Of a stretch of 64,000 nucleotides of DNA, positions 50,771 through 62,314 are shown piece after piece. Origin of the DNA: Candidatus Latescibacterota bacterium (lineage in GTDB: Bacteria; Latescibacterota; UBA2968; UBA8231). The stretch is from assembly GCA_965204725.1 (NCBI GenBank), contig OZ242005.1, positions 5,152,001-5,216,000 on the forward strand. The letters are read 5' to 3'. Position numbers and translations under genes: made by a program. The notes below the pieces were generated by a model. The model saw nothing but the letters and a program-made list of their open reading frames with translations. It was not told the origin of the DNA and searched no databases. How positions within the stretch are numbered: the first letter of the stretch is position 1; the number at the start of each line of letters is the position of its first letter.

Positions 50771-53062
50771 TTGGACCTAGTCGAACCTATACCCGAACGC
50801 CTATTGCCGCATATCCGCGACGAATTGCAACCCGGCGAGCTGCTCATCGTCCTCCTCTCCGCCGACATTCGCTCGGACGGCCAGTACGGCGACTCTTGGT
50901 TTGCGCTCACCGACGAGCGGATACTCGTCTTTCATCCCAATGGGGCCGATAAGCCCGAGACCGTGCGGCTCGGGTTGGACGAAGTGCAGGGCATCCAGAC
51001 CCGCAATTTTGTGGGCAGCGGCGCGCTCGTCGTCGAGCTGGCGGACGAAACCGTCGAGCTGCTGCGCTTTTCGCAGAGTGCGTACTACAAATTTTCCGGC
51101 GTGCCCCAAGCCATTGAGGGGGCTGGCCTAGTCGAGGAAGAAGACGCCGAAGGGGACGGGCCGCTACACGTCGATCCGGTCAAAGTAGTAGAACACTGCC
51201 CCACCTGTGGACGCGCCCACCGCTCCGGCTCCAAAGTCTGCCCCAACTGCCTGCGCCAGACCGAGACCTTCTGGCGGTTGTTTTCCTATATCAAGCCCTA
51301 TAAAACCCAAGCCCTGCTCGGGTTCACATTGACGATTCTGCTGACGGCCATTGGCCTGCTGCCGCCCCAACTCAACCGCATCCTCATCGACGATGTCATC
51401 GTCCCGGAGCTCGTCAAATACGAGGCCGCAGGCATCGCCGCGGGCGAGGCGACCACGCCCCCAGCCGCGAGCGTCCAATACCTGCTGTGGGTCGTGCTCG
51501 GGCTGCTCGGTATCTACATTGGCCGCGGCATTATCAGCGGCGTGCGGATGTACGCCCTAGGATGGCTCGGCCAGCGCGTGGTGTACGATTTGCAGATGCA
51601 AATTTTCCAACACTTGCAGTTGCTGTCGCTGACGTTTTACAACAAGCTCAGCACCGGTCGGATCATGACCCGCGTCACCAGCGACACCGAGCGCATGCGG
51701 AGCTTTATCACCTCGGGGTTCCAAGACATCGTCATCGACGGGCTGACGATCATCGGCATCTGCACGATGCTGTTTGTAATGAATTGGGAATTGGCGCTTT
51801 TGTCGCTGCTCCCAATCCCCTTCATGATCATCGGCACCATCATCTACCGCACCCGCATCCACTGGATTTTTCACCGGATCTGGCGGCGCATTTCCACGCT
51901 CAACGCCATGCTCGCCGACTCCATCCCCGGCGTCAAGGTCGTCAAGGCATTTGCCCAAGAAAACCGCGAGCTCGACCGCTTCAACGAGCGCAATACCGAC
52001 CTGCGCGAGTCGCAGATGACCGCCTTCAGGATGCGCTCCTATTACATTCCGACGATCGCCTTTGTCACCTCGGTCGGCTCCATCATCCTGTGGTGGTTTG
52101 GCGGCAACCGAGTGCTCGGCAACGCGCTGACCTTGGGCGACTTGCAGGCTTTTATCTCGTACATGGTCATGTTCTACGCCCCCGTGCGCTCGCTGTGCAA
52201 CCTCACCGAGCAGCTAGAGGCCGCGGCGACTACGGCCGAGCGCGTCTTTGAGATTATCGACACCGAGCCCGAAGTCCAAGACGACCCGGACGCCGTGGAC
52301 CCCGGCCCGCTTACCGGCGAGGTCGAGTTCCGCAACGTCAGCTTCACGTACGACGGCTCGGCTCGGATCCTCGATCGCATCCACTTTAGGGCCAAGCCCG
52401 GCGAGATGATCGGCATCGTCGGCCCCAGCGGCGCCGGCAAGTCAACCTTGGTCAACCTCATTTCGCGGTTCTACGACGCTACGGACGGCCAACTCCGCAT
52501 TGACGGCTACCCCATTACCCGGCTCAAACAGCAGGCGTTGCGCAGCCAAATCGGCGTGGTCTTGCAAGAGCCTCTGCTCTTCCAAGGCTCCATCGCCAGC
52601 AATATCGCCTACGGTCATCCCGAGGCAACGCGCCAAGAGGTCATTGAGGCGGCCCGCGCGGCCAACGCCCACAAGTTCATCATGAATTTTCCCGACGGCT
52701 ACGACACCCAAGTTGGCGAGCGCGGCGGCCGGCTCTCCGGCGGCGAGCGCCAGCGCATTTCCATTGCCCGCGCCCTAATCGGCAACCCGCGCATCCTGAT
52801 TCTCGACGAGGCCACCGCCTCGGTCGATACCCAGACCGAATACGAGATCCAAGAAGCGCTCGAGCGGCTGGTGGCCGGCCGCACCACCTTTGCCATCGCC
52901 CATCGGCTCTCGACGCTCAAAAACGCCGATCGACTGCTGGTGTTGGAAAGAGGGCGCATCGCCGAGGTGGGCACCCACGAAGAGTTGCTCAACATGGAGG
53001 ACGGCGTCTATCGCCGGCTGGTCAATATGCAAACCGAAATGGCGAAGGTACGGGCGCTATGA
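50771..53062 (+). CDS. ABC exporter (TMD+NBD) with N-terminal extension and C4 zinc ribbon
   Basis: CPTC..CPNC; GPSGAGKST, LSGGERQR, ILDEAT, IAHRLST; TTG start. Confidence 0.92.
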   Translation: MDLVEPIPERLLPHIRDELQPGELLIVLLSADIRSDGQYGDSWFALTDERILVFHPNGADKPETVRLGLDEVQGIQTRNFVGSGALVVELADETVELLRFSQSAYYKFSGVPQAIEGAGLVEEEDAEGDGPLHVDPVKVVEHCPTCGRAHRSGSKVCPNCLRQTETFWRLFSYIKPYKTQALLGFTLTILLTAIGLLPPQLNRILIDDVIVPELVKYEAAGIAAGEATTPPAASVQYLLWVVLGLLGIYIGRGIISGVRMYALGWLGQRVVYDLQMQIFQHLQLLSLTFYNKLSTGRIMTRVTSDTERMRSFITSGFQDIVIDGLTIIGICTMLFVMNWELALLSLLPIPFMIIGTIIYRTRIHWIFHRIWRRISTLNAMLADSIPGVKVVKAFAQENRELDRFNERNTDLRESQMTAFRMRSYYIPTIAFVTSVGSIILWWFGGNRVLGNALTLGDLQAFISYMVMFYAPVRSLCNLTEQLEAAATTAERVFEIIDTEPEVQDDPDAVDPGPLTGEVEFRNVSFTYDGSARILDRIHFRAKPGEMIGIVGPSGAGKSTLVNLISRFYDATDGQLRIDGYPITRLKQQALRSQIGVVLQEPLLFQGSIASNIAYGHPEATRQEVIEAARAANAHKFIMNFPDGYDTQVGERGGRLSGGERQRISIARALIGNPRILILDEATASVDTQTEYEIQEALERLVAGRTTFAIAHRLSTLKNADRLLVLERGRIAEVGTHEELLNMEDGVYRRLVNMQTEMAKVRAL

Positions 53063-53562
53063 GCGAGACACGCGGTTATTCGTACGGGGACTTTCTGCTC
53101 GACCCGCAAAAGACGCGCTTCAGCCGGTCCAAGCGCGGCAGCTTGATTCTCCATCTCGACGACGAGGAATACACCGACCTCAAGGTCCGCCGCGCCTTCC
53201 CATTAGAAGAGTCCGACCGCTATATCGGCGTCTTTGCCGCCGAAGACCGCGAACTCGGCCTCATTGAAGACCCGCAGCAGCTCGACGACCAAAGCCGCCA
53301 AGTGCTGCTAGACGAACTCGACAAGGTGTACTTTCAGCCGCAGGTCCTTGCTTTTAATCGCCTCGACGAAGAGTTCGGCGTGTTGCGCGGCCAGATCGAA
53401 ACCACCAGCGGCCCCCGCCAACTCGAAATCCGCAGCTACCGCACCAACGTCCGCATGCTCTCCGGCAACCGAGCCGTCATCGAGGACGTCGATGGCAACC
53501 GCTACTTGATTGCCAACTGGCGAGCGCTGCCGCAAAAGACGCGCGAGATTCTGGGGCTTTAA
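53059..53562 (+). CDS. DUF1854 domain protein
   Basis: VRRAFPL, ELDKVYFQP, IEDVDGNRYLI; ATGA coupling to the ABC gene. Confidence 0.8.
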   Translation: MSETRGYSYGDFLLDPQKTRFSRSKRGSLILHLDDEEYTDLKVRRAFPLEESDRYIGVFAAEDRELGLIEDPQQLDDQSRQVLLDELDKVYFQPQVLAFNRLDEEFGVLRGQIETTSGPRQLEIRSYRTNVRMLSGNRAVIEDVDGNRYLIANWRALPQKTREILGL

Positions 53563-53599
53563 CGAGCTTCGATACTTTCCAATCAGAAGGCAGCGAAAG

Positions 53600-53699
53600 A
53601 ATCAGCACTAGAATATGGGTCCAGCTCAATTGTCGTATCAGCGATACGACAATCTCAGGATCGGGAAAAACCTCAGCGAACTGAATCATACGGCGTAGG
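53600..53699 (-). pseudogene. DUF1016/YhcG 3' fragment
   Basis: LRRMIQFAEVFPDPEIVVSLIRQLSWTH, the in-frame continuation of the fragment at 59946-60212. Confidence 0.85.
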
Positions 53700-53965
53700 C
53701 TAAGTACGCGACAGTAAGATGGGGTTCATATTGTTGGGCGTAATCCGGTCGATACGGTGGCGCGTAAGGCAGGTTGCCCTTTGCGTGAGGGCTTTTTTGG
53801 GCATATTTTGGTATTTATGAATAAGCAAGGACGAACAGGAAGATGGTAAATCACTCAACATCTGAGATGACGCTGCCGCCGGTCCAGCCGGCCGCGATGA
53901 CCAGATCCTGCTTCCAATTTCAAGACTTAACAATTCGTCGTAACTCCTTGAAAGACAATCAGTTA

Positions 53966-53991
53966 CCCCCCCCCCCCCCCCCCCCCCCCCC
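53966..53991 (+). repeat. C26 homopolymer tract upstream of the surface-protein gene
   Basis: 26 consecutive C residues, ~195 nt before ATG 54186. Confidence 0.85.
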
Positions 53992-54185
53992 GCATTTTCA
54001 GCTATTAACCACAGTTAGCCACAGTCTCTTTACGTTCCATCGAGGGCCGGATGATCGCTGCGCTGAGGCGCGGTGCTCTATTCGCGCCGGGTTGGTAGTG
54101 GTCTGTACGGCTCTATTTTTGCGGCACCGGCTTAATCAAGGTTGCCAAATCCCAATTTCAAAACGCTTCTAAGAAAGGTTGAATA

Positions 54186-57100
54186 ATGACGCCTATAAAG
54201 TCTCTTATGAGGCCCTACTCCTCCGGCTTTTGGTTACTGGCTGTTAGCTTGGCACTGGTTTGGGCTGGCTCGGCGGCAGCGGACATTACCCTGTCCGTCG
54301 ATAAACCTACCATTCGAGAAGAAGACGGACGAACCGAAATTACCGTAACCGCCGAAAGCGACGCGAAAGTAACCGCAAATACCGTCGTGTCCCTGAAACT
54401 GGGGGCCAAGTTTTTCAGCGGTAACGCATCGCGTCTCCTCCCCAACGGAGTAGGGAATGTCAGCCCCGGCCATACTGTAGATGAACATGGTCGTTTTGTG
54501 GCTTATGGGCAGCCTTGGTGGGCCTTTAGTAGTCCGGCCCGTAATACAGGTGCTCTCCAGGTGTCTCCGACTAAGCCGGGGGGGGATTGGAAAGACTGGC
54601 TCAATAGTCGCGCCCATGTCAATGGCCGCTTCGCCATCACGCTGCCGACGTTAGTGATTCCTAAGGACCAGAAAAAGGCGACCGGCACCATTATCCTCAC
54701 GCCGAGGGATAACGACGAGCGCGGTTTTTATAATACCTATGATGACTTCACCATTCCTTTTGAGCTTGACTATCCCAACGTCAGCTATTCCGACATTCAG
54801 GCCGCTGGATCCCCTAACCTCTTGGCAGAATTTCAAGCCCGCAACGCCCCACCCCACCGCTATCCCGATCTGATTATCAAAATTGACGGCCTTGCCGGTA
54901 GCGAGACGGTTGAGCAGACGGAGATTCGCGTAACGGACGACGAAAAGCTAGCCAATCAGGTAAACCTTTCGTTTTCGCCCGCGAGTCTCAGCAAGGACGC
55001 AGGGCCGACTCCTGTTACCGTGACCGCGACCTTAAACGGCGGTACGCTGCGGTCGGACCAAACCTTTACTTTGTCCTTTAAGACAGGCTCGGAGGTCGAT
55101 CTTGGCTGCGTCGATAGAGGAAACTGCGCTCGCGCTGCTTTCCCGTTGGGTTTTACCGCGGACAGTATCCTGACGCGCGACACGGATTACTCGACGACGT
55201 CCGCATCGCTAACCATACGCCGGAATAAGCCGTCGGGGAAGGCGACGATTACCATCGATCCCAAAGGCAAGGTTGGCTACATCGCGCTCGCGGCGGGGAC
55301 GGAGCGGCTGGTCGTCAACGGCATTGACTTGAACCTCGATGGGGACATGAGCGACTCGCTGGCTCTTAGTAAAATGGATCGTTATCAGGATAGTTCGACT
55401 CTACGGCCCGACCGCGCCGTTTTCTTTTCAGAAGAAGGTCTAGGCTGTACCCCCACGACCTCCGGCCCCCTCTCTCAACACGATCTCAACTTTGATGGCC
55501 GCTGCGACGGCCTTATTCGGGAAGCGAGAATCGGCGTCGACCTGAACGGTAATGGGGTGGTTGATCCTGCTGCGAACGCTGGTGCTGCCATAAACTTTGG
55601 TAGTTTGATGGATGCTGTTCAACAAAATTTCGGGATTGCTCGTGAGTTTATCCTATTTGGCCAAGTAGTCGCAGGATCAGCCACCCGCCAAGACAACCGC
55701 GACAGCGGAGCCCTGCTGATGGCTGCGGTATATCCTCCAGGCAATCAGCCATCTAGGGTGCCTTGGATCGCTGACCGGGGTCCTCAGTTTAGCACCACTG
55801 TTCCGTGGGGCTCCCCGGCTGCTGACCATCCCGATGAGTGGCCTACGTCGAATCCGAGGTTTGTGTTAGTTGAAAGCTTACTGCCGCAGTATATTGAGTT
55901 GCCCCCCCATTTCTTTAAGATAACGGACACCCCCGTTGTCACCTTCAAAGACGCGACCGACGGCCTGACCGCCACGCCTTCAACGATCCGCGAGGGAGCC
56001 GGTCGGCAAGAAATCGCCCTGAAAGTCACCTTGAAGGCCGCCACATCAGCGGATACGCGGGTGACGTTCACCATCACTCCGCAAGAGGGTCGCCGCGACA
56101 TAGACTACACGGCCGTCTTGAGCGATCTCGTCATTCCCAAAGGCCAGACCTCCGCTTCAACCACGCTGGTTCTCACCCCGGTCGATAACGAGGTGGTGAA
56201 CGACGCACGGACATTCAACGTAGTCGCCACAATCGGCAGCGCGGACGACGCCCCCGAGGTCACCGAGACTATTACCATTGTAGATGACGAGACGCAGAGC
56301 ACACAGATCATGCTGACGGCCAGTCCCGCCGAAGTCAAGGCTGGCACCGGCGCCAACAACGTCACGATCACCGGCACGTTAGACGGCCAATCCTTCGACG
56401 AGGACGTGGACATAGTCTTAGTCGTCACCACCGACACGGACGCCGACGGCGACATGGACGACGCCGACAAAGCCGCCACCCGCGACACCGAATACACGGC
56501 CATCTTGCGCGGCCTGACGATAAAGGCCGGTGAAGTCACAGGCTCGCAGACGATCTCCATCACTCCCCTCGCCGGCGGCGACAAAAAGATCGGCCTAACC
56601 GCCCTAAAAAGCCCGGTCAAGAATGACGACGACGAGGACGTGACAGTCACCACGACCGTCATCACCCTGAAAGACGGCGACCCAGAGACGGGGCCGGGCG
56701 TCCTTGCTTTCGAGGACGACGTAGATGTGGTCTCCACCGTGTTTGAATACGTCGTCGGCACGGCCATTGAGCCTTATGTCCTACCCGCCGCCACCGGCGG
56801 CATTGGCGACAAGACCTACAGCGTGTCCGCCACCCTGCCCGCCGGTCTAGTATTCGACGCAGAAACCCGCACCCTATCGGGCACGCCGCTGACAGCGGGC
56901 GACGCCACCGTCGTGTACACAGTCATCGACAGCGCACCGGACCCAGTCAACACCGCCGTCCTCAGCCTGACCTTTGAGATCGGTACGGCTCCGCCCGCCA
57001 CCGTCCGCGTCGCCAGCGTAACCGCGACCCATTCCTCCATACGCGAAAACGGCGAGACGACCTCCATTCTCCTGACGGCAACGTTGGCCGCTCCCGCCGC

Positions 57101-58589
57101 CAAAGCCGAGACCATCCTCTTCACGATTGCCGCTCCCAGTTCGGGGACGCCAGCCGTGCGCGACGCCGATTACACCGCTGTCCTAGGCGGCTCCGGCGTC
57201 ATCGCGGTGGGCGAGACGCAAGGCCGGACGATGCTGACCTTGACCCCCCTCGACAACGCGGAGGTTGATGGCAATAAGTACTTGGGGGTGGAGGCGTCGG
57301 CCTCGGGCGGCTCGGCACGGACGGACATCAAGATCGCCGATGACGAAACGCCGAGTACGTCTTTGGCACTGTCGGTATCGCCCCACACCCTCAGCGAGGA
57401 CGCGGGCGTAACCCAGCTCACCGTCACGGCCATGCTGGACGGCAAAGCCCTCGACGCGGCTGCAACCGTAACCATCTCCATTGATCCGGCCTCAGCCGCC
57501 ACCCGCGATTTAGATTACTCCGCCCTATTCAACCCCTCACTGGTCATCCCGGCCGGTTCCACCTCCGGTTCCCTCACGTTCCTGATCGACCCGACCGCCG
57601 ACAACGAGGACGAAGGCAACGAGACGATCACGCTCATCGGGGCCTCTGAGGGCCTGACGAGCACCTCCGCCGATATAACGCTAGCCGACGCTGGCACAGA
57701 GACCCCGCTTCCCCCAGAAGCCACCCCTCTCGCCTTCACCGACGGCACGTCCATTGACGACCAAGAGTACACCGCCGGTACGGAGATCAGCGCTATGGAA
57801 CTCCCAGCCGCCGTTGGCGGTGTCGGCGACATCGCCTACAGCGTCACCGACCTGCCCGCGGGCCTGTCCTTCGACGCGGCCACCCGGACCATTTCGGGCA
57901 CACCCGACGCCGCTACCGACGAACCTGTCGAAGTAACCTATACCGCCGCCGACGGCACCGGTGCCTCCGCCACGCTAACCTTCTCCATCACAGTCAACGC
58001 CGAGATAACCTTCGACCTAGTATTCTTCGGCGCCGGCAAGCTCGTCCCAACCGCTTCCGACGACGGTGCTTCCATCCCCGAGTTCGCTGTCGGCCACCCG
58101 GTAGCCGCTTTCACGCTGCCTTCGGCTACCGGCGGCACCGAGCCGCTGACCTACACCCTTTCCCCAGAGCTCCCGTCGGGCCTGTCCTTCGACGCTGCCA
58201 CCCGCACCATTTCCGGCACGCCGCAAGCCGAAGGCTCCCCCCTCTACATCTACACAGTGACGGACGCTCTCGGTGCCAGCGTAACAATGCAGCTCCAAAC
58301 GCGCCCCGCCGCCTTCGTGCTCGCAACCAACTACCCGAACCCGTTTAACCCGGCGACGACGATCCAGTACGCCCTGCCCCAACCGGCCGACGTCCAGTTG
58401 ACTGTCTATAATGTCGTCGGTCAGGTGGTGCGGACGCTGGTCGCCGAGCACCAAGCTGCCGGCCGCTACCTAGTCGCTTGGGACGCGACGAATGACAACG
58501 GCCAAAGCCTGTCGGCGGGGATTTACTTCTATCGCTTGCAGGCGGGCGGCGAGTTCCACGCCGTCAGAAAGATGCTGCTGCTCAAGTAG
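54186..58589 (+). CDS. Large surface protein: Calx-beta-like repeats, putative Ig (He_PIG) repeats, FlgD/T9SS-type C-terminal domain
   Basis: Signal peptide; repeated (L)SVSP..E..TVTATL..ATRD.DY; three LPxGLxFDAxTRTxSGTP repeats; NYPNPFNPATTIQY..GIYFYRL..RKMLLLK. Confidence 0.88.
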   Translation: MTPIKSLMRPYSSGFWLLAVSLALVWAGSAAADITLSVDKPTIREEDGRTEITVTAESDAKVTANTVVSLKLGAKFFSGNASRLLPNGVGNVSPGHTVDEHGRFVAYGQPWWAFSSPARNTGALQVSPTKPGGDWKDWLNSRAHVNGRFAITLPTLVIPKDQKKATGTIILTPRDNDERGFYNTYDDFTIPFELDYPNVSYSDIQAAGSPNLLAEFQARNAPPHRYPDLIIKIDGLAGSETVEQTEIRVTDDEKLANQVNLSFSPASLSKDAGPTPVTVTATLNGGTLRSDQTFTLSFKTGSEVDLGCVDRGNCARAAFPLGFTADSILTRDTDYSTTSASLTIRRNKPSGKATITIDPKGKVGYIALAAGTERLVVNGIDLNLDGDMSDSLALSKMDRYQDSSTLRPDRAVFFSEEGLGCTPTTSGPLSQHDLNFDGRCDGLIREARIGVDLNGNGVVDPAANAGAAINFGSLMDAVQQNFGIAREFILFGQVVAGSATRQDNRDSGALLMAAVYPPGNQPSRVPWIADRGPQFSTTVPWGSPAADHPDEWPTSNPRFVLVESLLPQYIELPPHFFKITDTPVVTFKDATDGLTATPSTIREGAGRQEIALKVTLKAATSADTRVTFTITPQEGRRDIDYTAVLSDLVIPKGQTSASTTLVLTPVDNEVVNDARTFNVVATIGSADDAPEVTETITIVDDETQSTQIMLTASPAEVKAGTGANNVTITGTLDGQSFDEDVDIVLVVTTDTDADGDMDDADKAATRDTEYTAILRGLTIKAGEVTGSQTISITPLAGGDKKIGLTALKSPVKNDDDEDVTVTTTVITLKDGDPETGPGVLAFEDDVDVVSTVFEYVVGTAIEPYVLPAATGGIGDKTYSVSATLPAGLVFDAETRTLSGTPLTAGDATVVYTVIDSAPDPVNTAVLSLTFEIGTAPPATVRVASVTATHSSIRENGETTSILLTATLAAPAAKAETILFTIAAPSSGTPAVRDADYTAVLGGSGVIAVGETQGRTMLTLTPLDNAEVDGNKYLGVEASASGGSARTDIKIADDETPSTSLALSVSPHTLSEDAGVTQLTVTAMLDGKALDAAATVTISIDPASAATRDLDYSALFNPSLVIPAGSTSGSLTFLIDPTADNEDEGNETITLIGASEGLTSTSADITLADAGTETPLPPEATPLAFTDGTSIDDQEYTAGTEISAMELPAAVGGVGDIAYSVTDLPAGLSFDAATRTISGTPDAATDEPVEVTYTAADGTGASATLTFSITVNAEITFDLVFFGAGKLVPTASDDGASIPEFAVGHPVAAFTLPSATGGTEPLTYTLSPELPSGLSFDAATRTISGTPQAEGSPLYIYTVTDALGASVTMQLQTRPAAFVLATNYPNPFNPATTIQYALPQPADVQLTVYNVVGQVVRTLVAEHQAAGRYLVAWDATNDNGQSLSAGIYFYRLQAGGEFHAVRKMLLLK

Positions 58590-58604
58590 CCGGTCGCCGT
58601 CAGC

Positions 58605-58654
58605 AGGAGCCGGTTCCGCCGGCTCCCGTCCTTCCCGCGCACGCGGGAAGGACG
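58605..58654. repeat. Two hairpins after the surface-protein gene (terminator/REP-like)
   Basis: GGAGCCGG-TTCCG-CCGGCTCC and CGTCCTTCCCGCG-CA-CGCGGGAAGGACG. Confidence 0.65.
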
Positions 58655-58812
58655 AATCGAGTTCATACAATGGGGCCTCTCTCAGCCAGAGGCCCCATTT
58701 TTCTTTCTTTTCCAATAGACGTGACGCACCGCCTAGTTTTCCCTTATCTTGCAAGTATGGCCGAACCGCTCTCCGGCCTTCCCCCCGAACCCTCCCACCA
58801 AAGGAGCGAACC

Positions 58813-59067
58813 ATGACAGAACAACCCCTCCCCCTAACCCAAGAGCAAGACCACGACCGCCGCCTCAGCCAGCTAGAAGGCACTGCCGAACAATTCGTCG
58901 CGCAAAGCCGCCAGACCAACACCCGCTTAGACCACATCGATCAAACCATTGCCGCGCAAGGCCGCGAACTGCGGCGAGAGATCGCCGTGCTAACCCGCTG
59001 GTTGGTTGGAATGCAAGTAGCCAGCTTGGTGGTGCTGGGGACGCTGATCTTGTTGCGCTTGCCCTAA
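58813..59067 (+). CDS. Small coiled-coil protein with C-terminal TM anchor
   Basis: AAGGAG SD; RLSQLEG..RLDHID..RWLVGMQVASLVVLGTLILL. Confidence 0.65.
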   Translation: MTEQPLPLTQEQDHDRRLSQLEGTAEQFVAQSRQTNTRLDHIDQTIAAQGRELRREIAVLTRWLVGMQVASLVVLGTLILLRLP

Positions 59068-59147
59068 TCACCCGCCCCGGCCACCCCCCAATTTCGTAAC
59101 ATGGGGCTTCTCTCCAACAGAGGCCCCATGTTATCTTTTTACTTAGT

Positions 59148-59456
59148 ATGTACGATGTCCTGCTAACGCCCGAATTTATCGAATGGATGGACGCCTTGGA
59201 TCCTGTAACGGCTGACCGGGTTTCCAGTGTCCTCGACCGCATGGCAGAAGGCAATTGGGGAGACTACAAAACCTTATCAGGTGTGCGCGGCATTTTCGAG
59301 CGTCGCCTGATGGGAAAAGGACCGGGCATTCGGTTGTACTTCTGTCGGCAGGGCAGAAACGCAGTGATGATATTGACCGCTGGCGACAAAGCCACCCAAC
59401 AACGCGGAGATATTGCCAGAGCCCGGCGTCTCAGGGAACGATACGTACAAAATTAG
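59148..59456 (+). CDS. Type II toxin, RelE/ParE (addiction-module killer) family
   Basis: F.EWMDAL..RMAEGNWGDYK..GIFERR..GPGIRLYF..LTAGDKATQ..DIARA. Confidence 0.85.
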   Translation: MYDVLLTPEFIEWMDALDPVTADRVSSVLDRMAEGNWGDYKTLSGVRGIFERRLMGKGPGIRLYFCRQGRNAVMILTAGDKATQQRGDIARARRLRERYVQN

Positions 59457-59465
59457 GAGGGTATT

Positions 59466-59669
59466 ATGGCACTCACCAAACACGATGACTACGCCTGCCT
59501 GCGAGCGAAGCGAGACCCGGAATTCGCCCGACGGATACGTCAAAGAGCGATTGAACTGCTGGACGGCGATGAAGAGGATCGCCGGATTGCCCGCCGGATA
59601 CTCCAGAATCAGCTCGGGATCGCCGTTGGCGAAATCGACGAACTAGAACGGGAGAAGGCAACAGTCTGA
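59466..59669 (+). CDS. Putative antitoxin (short, no obvious HTH)
   Basis: AGGAGG SD; directly after the toxin; MALT..RAKRDPEFARR..AIELL resembles addiction-module antidote N-termini. Confidence 0.6.
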   Translation: MALTKHDDYACLRAKRDPEFARRIRQRAIELLDGDEEDRRIARRILQNQLGIAVGEIDELEREKATV

Positions 59670-59945
59670 TAGAGGAAAGTCATTTTCAGTTATCTTGCTA
59701 TTTAAAGACTGTAGCGGTGTTCAACCTACGCAACGGGGGTTCCACCCCCATTCATGCGGTACTACTTACTGTTTACTGTTTAAAATCACGTCCGACCCTG
59801 AGAAGCCTTTTTAAAACCCCCGTTGGACGCTTGGTGGGGCTGTCGAGTGGCCTTGGCGTCCAGTGTTTTTCATAGGGCGAGACGCCCTCGGGCCTAATCC
59901 CCTCAATCCCGGACGCATCGGGCGTACTCAATAGGTATCGCGTAC

Positions 59946-60212
59946 TTAGCGGCGTAGGTTTTTCTCCGAAAACCCGGTTCCAAACTTGCTCGCCAATTGT
60001 CGCGACAGCGTAGCGACAATTTCCTTTCCGTAATCGGCTCGTTGTCCTTGAAGAATCTCGTTCTGAATCCGCTTGCCGATTCTCCAGTAGAGACTCGTCA
60101 TACCTGCATTGATGGCCTGAGCAACTCCCGCACGGGTCTGCTCAATCATACTCTGCACATCGGCAAGCAAGCCATCCGGCGTGTCGATAATATCGAGATG
60201 TTCGTCGCTCAT
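59946..60212 (-). pseudogene. DUF1016/YhcG 5' fragment truncated by the insertion
   Basis: LYWRIGKRI..RADYGKEIVATLSRQL..GFSEKNLRR, then a stop supplied by the TIR. Confidence 0.88.
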
Positions 60213-60261
60213 GTCCGATTGTCCTGAGAATTTACTGGAGACGAGACTGGCTAGCATACAC

Positions 60262-61071
60262 TCAAGCGGCGAAATACGCCCGCATTTTCTCCAGACCAAT
60301 CCGGGCGACGTCGGCCGGGTCCTCAGCCCACAGCCCCGGATTGAACAACTCCAACGACACAAACCCCTCGTAGCCCTGCGCTCGCGCCAGCCGCTCAATC
60401 GCGCGCAACGGCCCGGCCCCGTCGCCGGGCATCACCCGGTCGGCGTCGCTTTGTTCGGCAAAGGGCTTGTCGGCTGGCGCGTCGTTCCAGTGCCAGACCG
60501 CGACCTTGTCGCCCGGCACTTTGGCAATGCTCTCGATGGGGCCGCCGCCGCGCAGGATGTGGAACGGGTCCATAACCAGACTCGCATCGGGATGGTCGGC
60601 GTCCACGGCAATCTGCCAAGCTTGGTCAATGGTATGCACGCTTTGCACAAAGCCGAGGTACTCCATGGCTGGGCGCACGCCGATTTCCCGGCCCATCTCC
60701 AGCAAGGCGCGGTAATCGGCCCCGCCCCGGCTCAGGTCGCAGGGCGTCAGCGGTGGGCTGGCGACTATGAACTCGGCCCCCACCGCTACGGCCTGCGCCA
60801 TTCGCCGCCGAACCTCCTCCATAGCCTGCACCCGCGCCGCGCCCTCAGCCCCCAACCAGCCGTGGAGCGCGATGACGGTCGGCACGGCCAGCCCGTAGTC
60901 GGCTAGTGCCCGTCGCACATCTGCGAGCGAACCGCCCTGCTGCTCGTGCGCGGTCAAGTCGTCGTTCCACAGCTCAATGCCCCGGTAGCCGGTCTGCCCG
61001 GCAATGCGGATTTTCTCCAGCAGCGACGCCGGCCGGATCGTCGAAGTGTTGAGCGCGTATTGCACCGTCAT
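60262..61071 (-). CDS. Sugar phosphate isomerase/epimerase (TIM barrel)
   Basis: GYRGIELW, MEYL, MDPFH, HWNDA, RVMPGDG, VSLELFN. Confidence 0.85.
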   Translation of the reverse strand: MTVQYALNTSTIRPASLLEKIRIAGQTGYRGIELWNDDLTAHEQQGGSLADVRRALADYGLAVPTVIALHGWLGAEGAARVQAMEEVRRRMAQAVAVGAEFIVASPPLTPCDLSRGGADYRALLEMGREIGVRPAMEYLGFVQSVHTIDQAWQIAVDADHPDASLVMDPFHILRGGGPIESIAKVPGDKVAVWHWNDAPADKPFAEQSDADRVMPGDGAGPLRAIERLARAQGYEGFVSLELFNPGLWAEDPADVARIGLEKMRAYFAA

Positions 61072-61093: not shown

Positions 61094-62116
61094 TTAGGCC
61101 ACACATAAAAAATCCTTTCCCTCGATCAGCCCCAATCCAGCCAACGCTTCCCGAATCAGCACCCGCGCCCCCCGCGACGCCACCGCCGACAAGAGGAACG
61201 GCCGCTCGTGACGCGCCCACCAAGCCGGCAAGTCTTCCGGCCCGATCACCGGCTTGCGCCGCAAGGTGCCGCCGATTTTCTTGGGGGCAATATCGACAAA
61301 TACGTTGGGAGCACGGCCTTCGCGCTCCAAGTGTTTGGCGAGCCGCCGGCCAGTCTTGCCCGCCCCCCATACTACCAGCCCGTCCCGCTCTTGCAGCGGC
61401 CCGGCGCAAAGGTAGTGCGCTTTGGCGCGGAGGAAGTTCTCCACGGAGTAGCGGCTCTGTACGTGCGTGGCTCGCCGCGGATGCTCGCGCCAATAGTGCA
61501 AGACCTCCGGCACCTTGGCAAAGCGCCGGCCCGCCGCCCGATAGCGCAACCACAGATCGTAGTCTTCCGGCCATCCCCGATCTTGATACCCCCCCAAGGC
61601 CACCAATTCCTCGCGGCGCATCATGGCCGACGGATGGGCGATGGGACTTTCGATGAAAAACTCTCGTTCAATGGCCGCGCTATCTACCAAGCCGTTTAGC
61701 CACGCCTCATACACCCGCATCCCCTCCCCGGTCGCGGCCCGCGGAAAGATCTCCACCAGACAGCTCACGACACTCAAATTGCGATCTGCTTCCAACCACG
61801 CGAGTTGTTTTTCCAAGCGCTCGGGGTGCATTCGGTCGTCGGCGTCCATGCGCGCCACGTATTCGCCCCGACACCACGGCAAGCCCCGGTTCGGCGCCGC
61901 GACAATGCCCCCGTGGTCGGCGAGCAACGCCCGAAAGCGGCCATCGCGACGACTCCATTCCAAGAGCATGTCCCCACTCTCGTCCTCCGAGCCGTCGTCT
62001 ATGCCGACGACCTCAAAGTCTTCCCAGCTCTGCGCTTGGATGCTCGCCAGTGTTTCCGGCAGGGTGGCGGCTGCGTTGAACACGGGTAGTAGTACTGATA
62101 CGCGGGGCGTTTTCAT
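61094..62116 (-). CDS. Glycosyltransferase family 2
   Basis: VSVLLPVFN, IDDGSED, ARMDADD, HPS, EDYDLWLR. Confidence 0.9.
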   Translation of the reverse strand: MKTPRVSVLLPVFNAAATLPETLASIQAQSWEDFEVVGIDDGSEDESGDMLLEWSRRDGRFRALLADHGGIVAAPNRGLPWCRGEYVARMDADDRMHPERLEKQLAWLEADRNLSVVSCLVEIFPRAATGEGMRVYEAWLNGLVDSAAIEREFFIESPIAHPSAMMRREELVALGGYQDRGWPEDYDLWLRYRAAGRRFAKVPEVLHYWREHPRRATHVQSRYSVENFLRAKAHYLCAGPLQERDGLVVWGAGKTGRRLAKHLEREGRAPNVFVDIAPKKIGGTLRRKPVIGPEDLPAWWARHERPFLLSAVASRGARVLIREALAGLGLIEGKDFLCVA

Positions 62117-62139
62117 GGTTGCAAGTTTAAGCGCTCGAC

Positions 62140-62245
62140 CTAAGTACGCGACCCTTACGTTGCGTAGCCTTTTCTGGTGTTGCCGCTGCGTCCGGGATCG
62201 AGGGCGTCCCGCCCTCGACGAGGGCAAGATGCCCTCGATCCCGGG
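62140..62245. repeat. Third copy of the element end motif plus REP-like nested hairpins
   Basis: CTAAGTACGCGAC at 62140; CCGGGATCGAGGGCGTCCCGCCCTCGACGAGGGCAAGATGCCCTCGATCCCGG. Confidence 0.75.
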
Positions 62246-62314
62246 GAGGGTGGCCGCGGATGGCTCGTGGTACGGTGCTTGACATTCTTTTGCTCAATGC
62301 CCGATTTTTAATCT

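Follow-up and report, generated by a model that had tools for sequence, protein, structure and literature searches.

Mobile insertion cassettes (MICs) are defined as two repeats of the insertion sequence (IS) type surrounding one or more genes, without a transposase; sizes of 0.7 to 3 kb are quoted for them, and they are moved in trans by the enzyme of the parent element (PMC6199540). The described example closest to the locus reported here is MIC231, a derivative of IS231 (IS4 family) from the Bacillus cereus group (Chen et al. 1999; De Palmenaer et al. 2004, as summarised in PMC6199540 and PMC2266710), which has an IS-derived region beside one of its repeats and for which mobilisation in trans has been shown (PMC6199540). 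Related arrangements include the TIME-COMPs, composite non-autonomous transposons formed from Tn3-derived TIMEs (PMC4133298), and the mic elements with qnrD or qnrS2 (PMC3913671, PMC5444012). Here we describe a 6.25-kb unit in a genome of Candidatus Latescibacterota bacterium (5.43 Mb, hereafter G000), located within a window of 64,000 nucleotides (G000:C1:5152001-5216000; positions below are those of the window unless a genome or locus is named). With a probability of roughly 85%, we consider this unit to be a non-autonomous, cargo-carrying derivative of an IS4-family (IS10-subgroup-like) IS, that is, a mobile insertion cassette with hybrid ends.

The unit resembles MIC231 in having IS-type inverted repeats around passenger genes (here four), no transposase gene, an IS-derived stretch beside one repeat, and a parent from the IS4 family, and it is flanked by the target duplication typical of its parent (a perfect 9-bp repeat, with a matching empty site). 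It differs from the described MICs in its size, 6.25 kb versus the 0.7 to 3 kb quoted, and from MIC231 in its parent, which is IS10-like (CT ends, 9-bp repeats), whereas IS231 has CAT ends and 10 to 12 bp repeats (PMC2266710). Further differences are that the two ends of the unit derive from different non-autonomous elements, that its cargo comprises a surface protein of the type IX secretion system (T9SS) and a toxin-antitoxin pair, that its host genome has lost the enzyme, and that movement in trans, shown for MIC231, is proposed here. As in TIME-COMPs and mic elements, the cargo of the unit would be moved by the outer repeats of short transposase-less elements; unlike in those, neither flanking element is complete, the inner repeats are gone so that the unit would behave as a single cassette, and the transposase family is another one. 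The cognate IS, with its YREK-type DDE transposase, CT ends and 9-bp duplications, is like IS10 of Tn10 and IS50 of Tn5, whereas those transposons have two full IS copies with their own transposase and the unit has no enzyme.

Three other classes were considered and set aside. The unit does not qualify as a composite transposon, which has a complete element with both repeats at each end: its left piece has no second repeat, and its right piece covers only positions 1-77 of a 136-position model of a miniature inverted-repeat transposable element (MITE). Nor is it itself a MITE: such elements are non-coding and range from tens to a few hundred bp, whereas the unit measures 6250 bp and holds four genes. 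Transporter ISs (tIS) carry their own transposase together with passenger genes, and the unit has no transposase.

A precise insertion in a DUF1016 gene

The unit occupies 6250 bp (53700-59949) directly inside two copies of the 9-bp sequence CGGCGTAGG, with CTAAGTACGCGA at 53700-53711 and the reverse complement of CTAAGTACGCGA at 59938-59949 (Table 1). A preliminary description of this DNA had placed a 9-bp direct repeat around 12-bp inverted repeats, and its coordinates proved exact; it had also called the ends perfect, which is correct for 12 bp but not beyond. A repeat search of the window returned inverted arms of 13 nt with 100% complementarity. The window contains the terminal 12-mer 3 times, where 0.22 occurrences are expected (3 or more in 0 of 100 shuffles), the third copy, at 62140, belonging to a separate MITE. 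The GC content is 58.8% in the unit and 60% in the window.

The interrupted gene encodes a DUF1016 (YhcG-like) protein. Positions 1-71 of the Pfam profile DUF1016_N close the open reading frame (ORF) 59946-60398(-) and positions 72-104 open ORF 53477-53689(-), so that the insertion falls between two adjacent profile positions. In four of the five congener DUF1016 loci fetched (L022-L025; L numbers denote loci fetched from congeners, and G001 upwards related genomes), both halves align to one continuous gene with a 9-bp overlap; the fifth (L021) has diverged at the insertion point, yet carries an intact gene of ~340 aa. The earlier proposal that excision restores a DUF1016/YhcG sequence is thus borne out by the 71/72 continuity of the profile, by four of five congener loci and by the metagenome contigs described below. 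The split of a DUF1016 gene is likewise real, but only a 5' fragment of that gene is involved, since DUF1016 homology stops near 53616.

Population data were taken from Logan contigs (contigs, not reads) of four metagenome runs aligned to 53000-60800; the run labels indicate a sponge- and marine-associated lineage, X1 may be the source of the assembly, and X4 belongs to a different study. Contigs of X3 and X9 join 53690 to 59950, skipping 6259 bases (6250 + 9), with 9 ambiguous letters. These contigs represent a precise empty site, for which the preliminary description had proposed to search, and the insertion is polymorphic between samples. The X3 empty-site contig reaches 60357 in the neighbouring gene and therefore represents the same locus without the unit. 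Both X3 and X9 also contain a form that joins 53562 to 60267 and has neither the DUF1016 fragment nor the unit. Contigs of X1 cross both junctions (53000-53913 and 59040-60800) without differences, and an X4 contig crosses the right junction (59683-60165); misassembly of the junctions, raised as a concern in the preliminary description, is therefore unlikely.

The spot that holds the unit and the DUF1016 fragment (53563-60266), between a 167-aa gene and a sugar-phosphate-isomerase-like gene, is variable across the genus: in 14 of 24 same-genus genomes the interval between the flanking genes measures 13-26 bp, and in G012, G022 and G023 it extends to 12-23 kb. In the G012 island (L021, G012:C1:2503700-2517900), the intact DUF1016 gene is followed by an ORF that, by eye, resembles a type I restriction specificity subunit.

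Transposon ends and the cognate insertion sequence

Throughout the genome, the terminal 12-mer occurs 36 times. When CTAAGTACGCGACAC and CTTACTACACGACAC, the two variants of the end, were searched as inverted pairs with up to 3 mismatches allowed, 294 matches resulted; in 21 pairs the 9-bp flanks agree at no fewer than 8 of 9 positions, and 20 of these pairs are 68-137 bp long, the sole long one being the unit. A profile built from 19 MITE copies, which have a mean pairwise identity of 85%, yields 197 matches in the genome, merging into 116 loci, and among the 23 matches that span the whole 136-position model, 10 are flanked by perfect 9-bp duplications and 14 by flanks matching at 8 or more of 9 positions. 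The ends of the unit therefore belong to a MITE family that is abundant and fairly old and that generates 9-bp duplications. Two IS-sized end pairs (1756 and 1797 bp) were rejected as candidate parents: their translations, inspected by eye, correspond to ordinary genes, and tblastn found no transposase match in them. The third 12-mer in the window marks an ordinary 134-bp MITE copy (62140-62272; nhmmer model 1-134), located just upstream of a glycosyltransferase-like ORF, 61094..62227(-), the long N-terminal extension of which probably runs into this element.

Of 31 genomes of the genus, 10 gave matches to the first 81 nt of the unit. The congener IS elements found in this way are 1165-1313 bp long (1165, 1167, 1194 and 1313 bp), carry CTAAGTACACGACAGTAA at both ends and contain one ORF of 327-389 aa; perfect 9-bp duplications are present at 4 of the 7 distinct full-size copies checked (G007, G014, G010, G019). 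The 365-aa transposase (P0001) matches NF033591, 'IS4 family transposase', with 201.1 bits (cut-off 152) and PF01609 with 62.9 bits, and the 365-aa ORF in L010, a single ORF without frameshift, contains YGQRWAIETTFACLK, which fits Y-2-R-3-E-6-K. The IS4 family is characterised by a DDE transposase with the signature Y-(2)-R-(3)-E-(6)-K, and its IS10 subgroup by CT ends, 9-bp direct repeats and lengths of 1200-1350 bp (PMC2266710). The congener elements fit the IS10 subgroup of that table by their CT ends, 9-bp repeats and size, some lengths being just below the tabulated range, and on these features we assign them to the IS4 family, IS10-like subgroup, as the preliminary description had suggested from the ends.

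Full-length, stop-free IS copies number 15 in G010, at least 26 among the matches listed in G019, 2 in G007 and 1 in G001, with 1 near-full copy in G009; transposase matches of any kind occur in 21 of the 31 genomes. An autonomous IS with the same ends, which the preliminary description had proposed to look for, exists intact in congeners; the genome of the window retains only one truncated copy. This single transposase match spans residues 140-365 with 73% identity (in a second search 137-365, including an internal TAG) and has neither the N-terminal part nor one of the IS ends; a few shorter IS relics lie elsewhere in the same genome.

MITEs and parent IS show an inverse pattern among these genomes: 116 MITE loci and no intact transposase in G000, 15 identical IS copies and only ~3 MITE-type ends in G010, and at least 26 full-length copies among the matches listed in G019; G010 and G019 are the genomes with many active-looking IS copies. 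One IS copy, in L011 (G014:C82, 228-1540), is 148 bp longer and has another short repeat nested inside; pieces of this repeat also occur in G000, including 59850-59888 at the right end of the unit. IS5-like elements were rejected as parents of the unit. The 25 genomic PF01609 matches correspond to three IS5-like families (930, 933 and 846 bp, with 5, 7 and ~12 copies; e.g., G000:C1:565380-565847) and the truncated IS4 copy, and the ends of the IS5-like families are unrelated to those of the unit. Further ~120-bp repeat families adjoin IS5-like elements in G000.

The two ends of the unit have different structures. The left ~130 bp are an internally deleted IS copy, composed of both termini of the transposase gene (Table 1): ~950 bp of the gene have been deleted between the two pieces, and unit positions 117-131 (15 nt) match L010 1053-1067. 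The same deletion junction is present in a second copy (G000:C1:5311062-5311128, 94%), and the deletion derivative would therefore be older than the joining of the cargo. The second end of the IS, expected ~100 bp past the remnant, is absent from the left region. The right 76 bp of the unit are half a MITE and, beyond 12 nt, show no resemblance to either IS end. The right end region (59670-59949) also contains repeat debris: a segment at 59794-59820 is similar to the terminal repeat found in the 930-bp IS5-like element, and both 59808-59895 and 59850-59888 match other short repeats. Both inner ends being missing, only the two outer repeats are usable.

Of the 64 open frames of at least 45 aa in the unit, 63 were included in a six-frame Pfam scan, which gave no match to a transposase domain at E ≤ 0.1; the 64th frame (the adhesin), scanned separately, gave none either. 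The unit is therefore free of transposase at the level of domains in all six frames, as had been claimed, but not of transposase-gene sequence, given the ~130-bp remnant at its left end. A remnant had been named beforehand as the mark of a decayed ordinary IS; the one found is confined to ~130 bp at the left end, beside 6 kb of cargo unrelated to it, and the unit is therefore not a decayed ordinary IS.

Table 1. Coordinates of the unit, its target site and its cargo in the window.
Feature	Position	Strand	Details
Continuation of the DUF1016 gene	53616..53699	-	homology stops near 53616
Left target-site duplication, 9 bp	53691..53699	.	CGGCGTAGG; single in homologous DUF1016 genes
Left terminal inverted repeat	53700..53717	+	12 nt perfect versus right end; 18 nt of IS type (CTAAGTACGCGACAGTAA)
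IS end with last transposase codons and stop	53700..53741	-	93% identical to IS L010 1-41
Remnant of transposase gene 5' region	53741..53830	-	unit positions 42-108 versus IS L016 775-841, 81%
Adhesin module (upstream region, adhesin gene, small membrane-protein gene)	53778..59088	+	
Conserved 45-nt motif, then 26-nt poly-C tract (53966-53991)	53921..53991	+	195 bp upstream of the adhesin start codon
1467-aa secreted protein	54186..58589	+	three He_PIG Ig-like domains; C-terminal FlgD_ig / T9SS type A sorting domain
84-aa protein	58813..59067	+	C-terminal membrane helix; no family match; paralogs flank other adhesin copies
RelE/ParE-family toxin, 102 aa	59148..59456	+	TIGR02683, 67.6 bits (cut-off 62.85); Pfam Gp49
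Presumed antitoxin, 67 aa	59466..59669	+	no family match
Debris of other small repeats	59794..59895	.	
Diverged left half of the 136-bp MITE	59874..59949	-	model 1-77, nhmmer E 2.4e-5; right inverted repeat at 59938-59949
Right target-site duplication, 9 bp	59950..59958	.	CGGCGTAGG
5' part of the interrupted DUF1016 (YhcG-like) gene	59950..60239	-	89-92% identical to congener genes

Proposed assembly of the unit and competing explanations

We propose that an IS10-like IS, once resident in the lineage, would have given rise to MITEs and deletion derivatives, and that resident genes, brought together as a mosaic, became flanked by one end from such a derivative and one from a MITE, while the inner ends of both were lost. 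The cognate DDE transposase, acting in trans, would then have excised the unit at its outer repeats and pasted it into the DUF1016 gene, generating the 9-bp duplication, and the later decay of the IS in this genome would have stranded the unit. With only a truncated transposase left, neither the unit nor the 116 MITE loci can move until the enzyme returns. The left junction adjoins a stretch of ~50 bp in which the IS 5' region and the upstream regions of the adhesins resemble each other and which could, speculatively, have guided the capture through recombination. The data show the insertion with its boundaries, the empty site, the family of the ends, the cognate IS and the lack of an intact transposase; we infer the cut-and-paste step in trans, the sequence in which the pieces were captured and whatever role the cargo may have. 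The polymorphism of the site between samples is circumstantial evidence for mobilisation in trans, and the earlier view that the unit is non-autonomous, has ends of the IS4/IS10 type and was mobilised in trans gains support from the cognate IS of the congeners.

Cargo sequences also occur apart from the unit. In X3, despite the empty DUF1016 site, a 581-nt contig holds the adjacency of membrane-protein gene and toxin-antitoxin pair (59023-59605) with 7 differences and 2 gaps, and the segment 59698-59928 is found in X3 and X9 joined to other sequence. Because cargo pieces accompany an empty site in these runs, a donor locus or a second insertion exists; within our account the donor locus is a part that we only infer.

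Several observations weigh against this account. The two ends agree over 12 nt only, and enzymes of the IS10/IS50 type contact ~19-23 nt. The closest cargo paralog is only 91% identical and thus does not identify the donor locus. The unit is present as a single copy in this genome, with none at high identity in 40 related genomes; exact-match searches of the metagenome contigs returned 0 matches for the left IS/cargo junction (30 nt) and 0 for the right end (24 nt); and among the end matches in G010 (38) and G019 (88), judged by positions only, no cargo-bearing derivatives were evident.

A classical MIC, formed from one IS copy by replacement of the transposase gene so that both ends come from the same IS, is the alternative that survives best. 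Internal replacement predicts that both termini of the transposase gene persist, as they do at the left end, and MIC231 elements share an IS-derived region beside one repeat (PMC6199540). However, the right end past 12 nt is unlike either IS end and fits MITE model 1-77 (E 2.4e-5), and the second IS end is absent from where it was expected, which makes an origin from one IS improbable. Arrival through homologous or illegitimate recombination in a variable island, with the 9-bp repeat and the inverted ends incidental, would agree with the variable spacing of the flanking genes and with the ~50-bp similarity at the junction between left IS remnant and cargo. We nevertheless rate it as very improbable, as both boundaries fall exactly at the termini of a transposon family whose copies generate 9-bp duplications genome-wide, the empty site differs by exactly the unit and one repeat copy, and a 9-bp identity at fixed positions has a chance of ~4e-6. 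The prospects are slimmer still for an autonomous unit in which one cargo gene encodes an unrecognised transposase: the 84-aa protein and the 67-aa protein lack family matches, but both are far too small for such a role and have paralogs or orthologs in non-mobile contexts, the scans of 63 open frames and of the adhesin yielded no transposase domain, and the ends match a known IS that encodes its own enzyme. An assembly artefact joining unrelated repeats, to which the breaking of contigs at the poly-C tract and the repeat nature of the ends might point, can practically be dismissed given the independent X1 contigs and the X4 contig from another study.

Cargo, poly-C tract and implications

The interior of the hybrid-ended cassette is a mosaic of an adhesin module, a toxin-antitoxin pair and repeat debris; the earlier inventory of its cargo (a poly-C tract, a 1467-aa surface protein, a small membrane protein and a toxin-antitoxin pair) was reproduced, the toxin of the pair by profile matches. 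The adhesin module is 90.6% identical to G000:C1:4922913-4917588 over 5389 columns, and five further copies are 80-87% identical. The 1467-aa adhesin-like protein matches TIGR04183 with 35.3 bits (cut-off 23), and the genome encodes a PorU homolog (623 bits, cut-off 420) together with 50 further matches to T9SS C-terminal domains; with a sorting domain in the protein and PorU in the genome, it is a predicted T9SS substrate. The one sub-threshold Rfam match within the adhesin gene was taken as chance.

Terminator-like hairpins at 58669-58699 and 59096-59134 bracket the gene of the 84-aa membrane protein. The two hairpin regions (58662-58701 and 59093-59132) are 80% alike, with stems of 12 and 16 pairs, and a related hairpin is present in a paralogous adhesin module; in the promoter and terminator scan, counts were not above those of shuffles. 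The segment with the toxin-antitoxin pair (59124-59670) is 91% identical to L026 2268-2814, and in G006 the pair forms a stand-alone two-gene module between housekeeping genes. With a predicted RelE/ParE (HigB-like) toxin and a conserved partner, it is classified as a putative type II toxin-antitoxin system.

The ~45-nt motif directly followed by a poly-C tract, here upstream of the adhesin gene, recurs in the genome, and these nine loci are the most interesting lead met in passing. The eight others are at G000:C1:172217, 973531, 1929221, 1930531, 3705993, 3825568, 4824834 and 4855116. The poly-C tracts are 13-26 nt long, in lengths that are not multiples of three, and lie upstream of secreted-protein genes; the first ORFs after them include four adhesin paralogs with T9SS tails, a leucine-rich-repeat (LRR)-like protein and an ankyrin-repeat protein (the last two recognised by eye). 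Two T interrupt the tract of the adhesin copy with 91% identity, and metagenome contigs break at the tract of the unit. The motif with its poly-C tract is a candidate hypermutable promoter or leader element. The preliminary description had suggested a possibly phase-variable adhesin, which a putative addiction module would stabilise, and tract length does differ, from 13 to 26 nt, between paralogous loci.

Elements of this kind are already known, and the unit is a well-documented new example that opens no new class but is informative about the mobilome of its lineage. It provides a clean natural case, with population data, of how transposase-less IS derivatives can capture and move several kb of cargo; its ends come from two different miniature elements, and its host later lost the enzyme. 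For annotation, orphan inverted repeats and a target duplication suffice to recognise such units if the parent IS is known in relatives.

More broadly, cassettes with IS4/MITE ends might be a route by which this symbiont lineage copies and moves host-interaction genes within and between strains, the seven adhesin paralogs being former cassettes whose ends have decayed, although we regard this extension as doubtful. If it were true, the genes that moved as cassettes would be those of the T9SS adhesins and perhaps also those of the ankyrin-type and LRR-type proteins with the same motif and poly-C module, each with a hypermutable poly-C switch and, in the present case, also with a toxin-antitoxin pair hindering loss; the ~50 bp of similarity between the 5' region of the IS and the sequences upstream of the adhesins would then be a trace of cassette history. 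The unit itself links a family of secreted proteins with immunoglobulin (Ig)-like domains and variable poly-C tracts to mobile DNA in a sponge- and marine-associated lineage.

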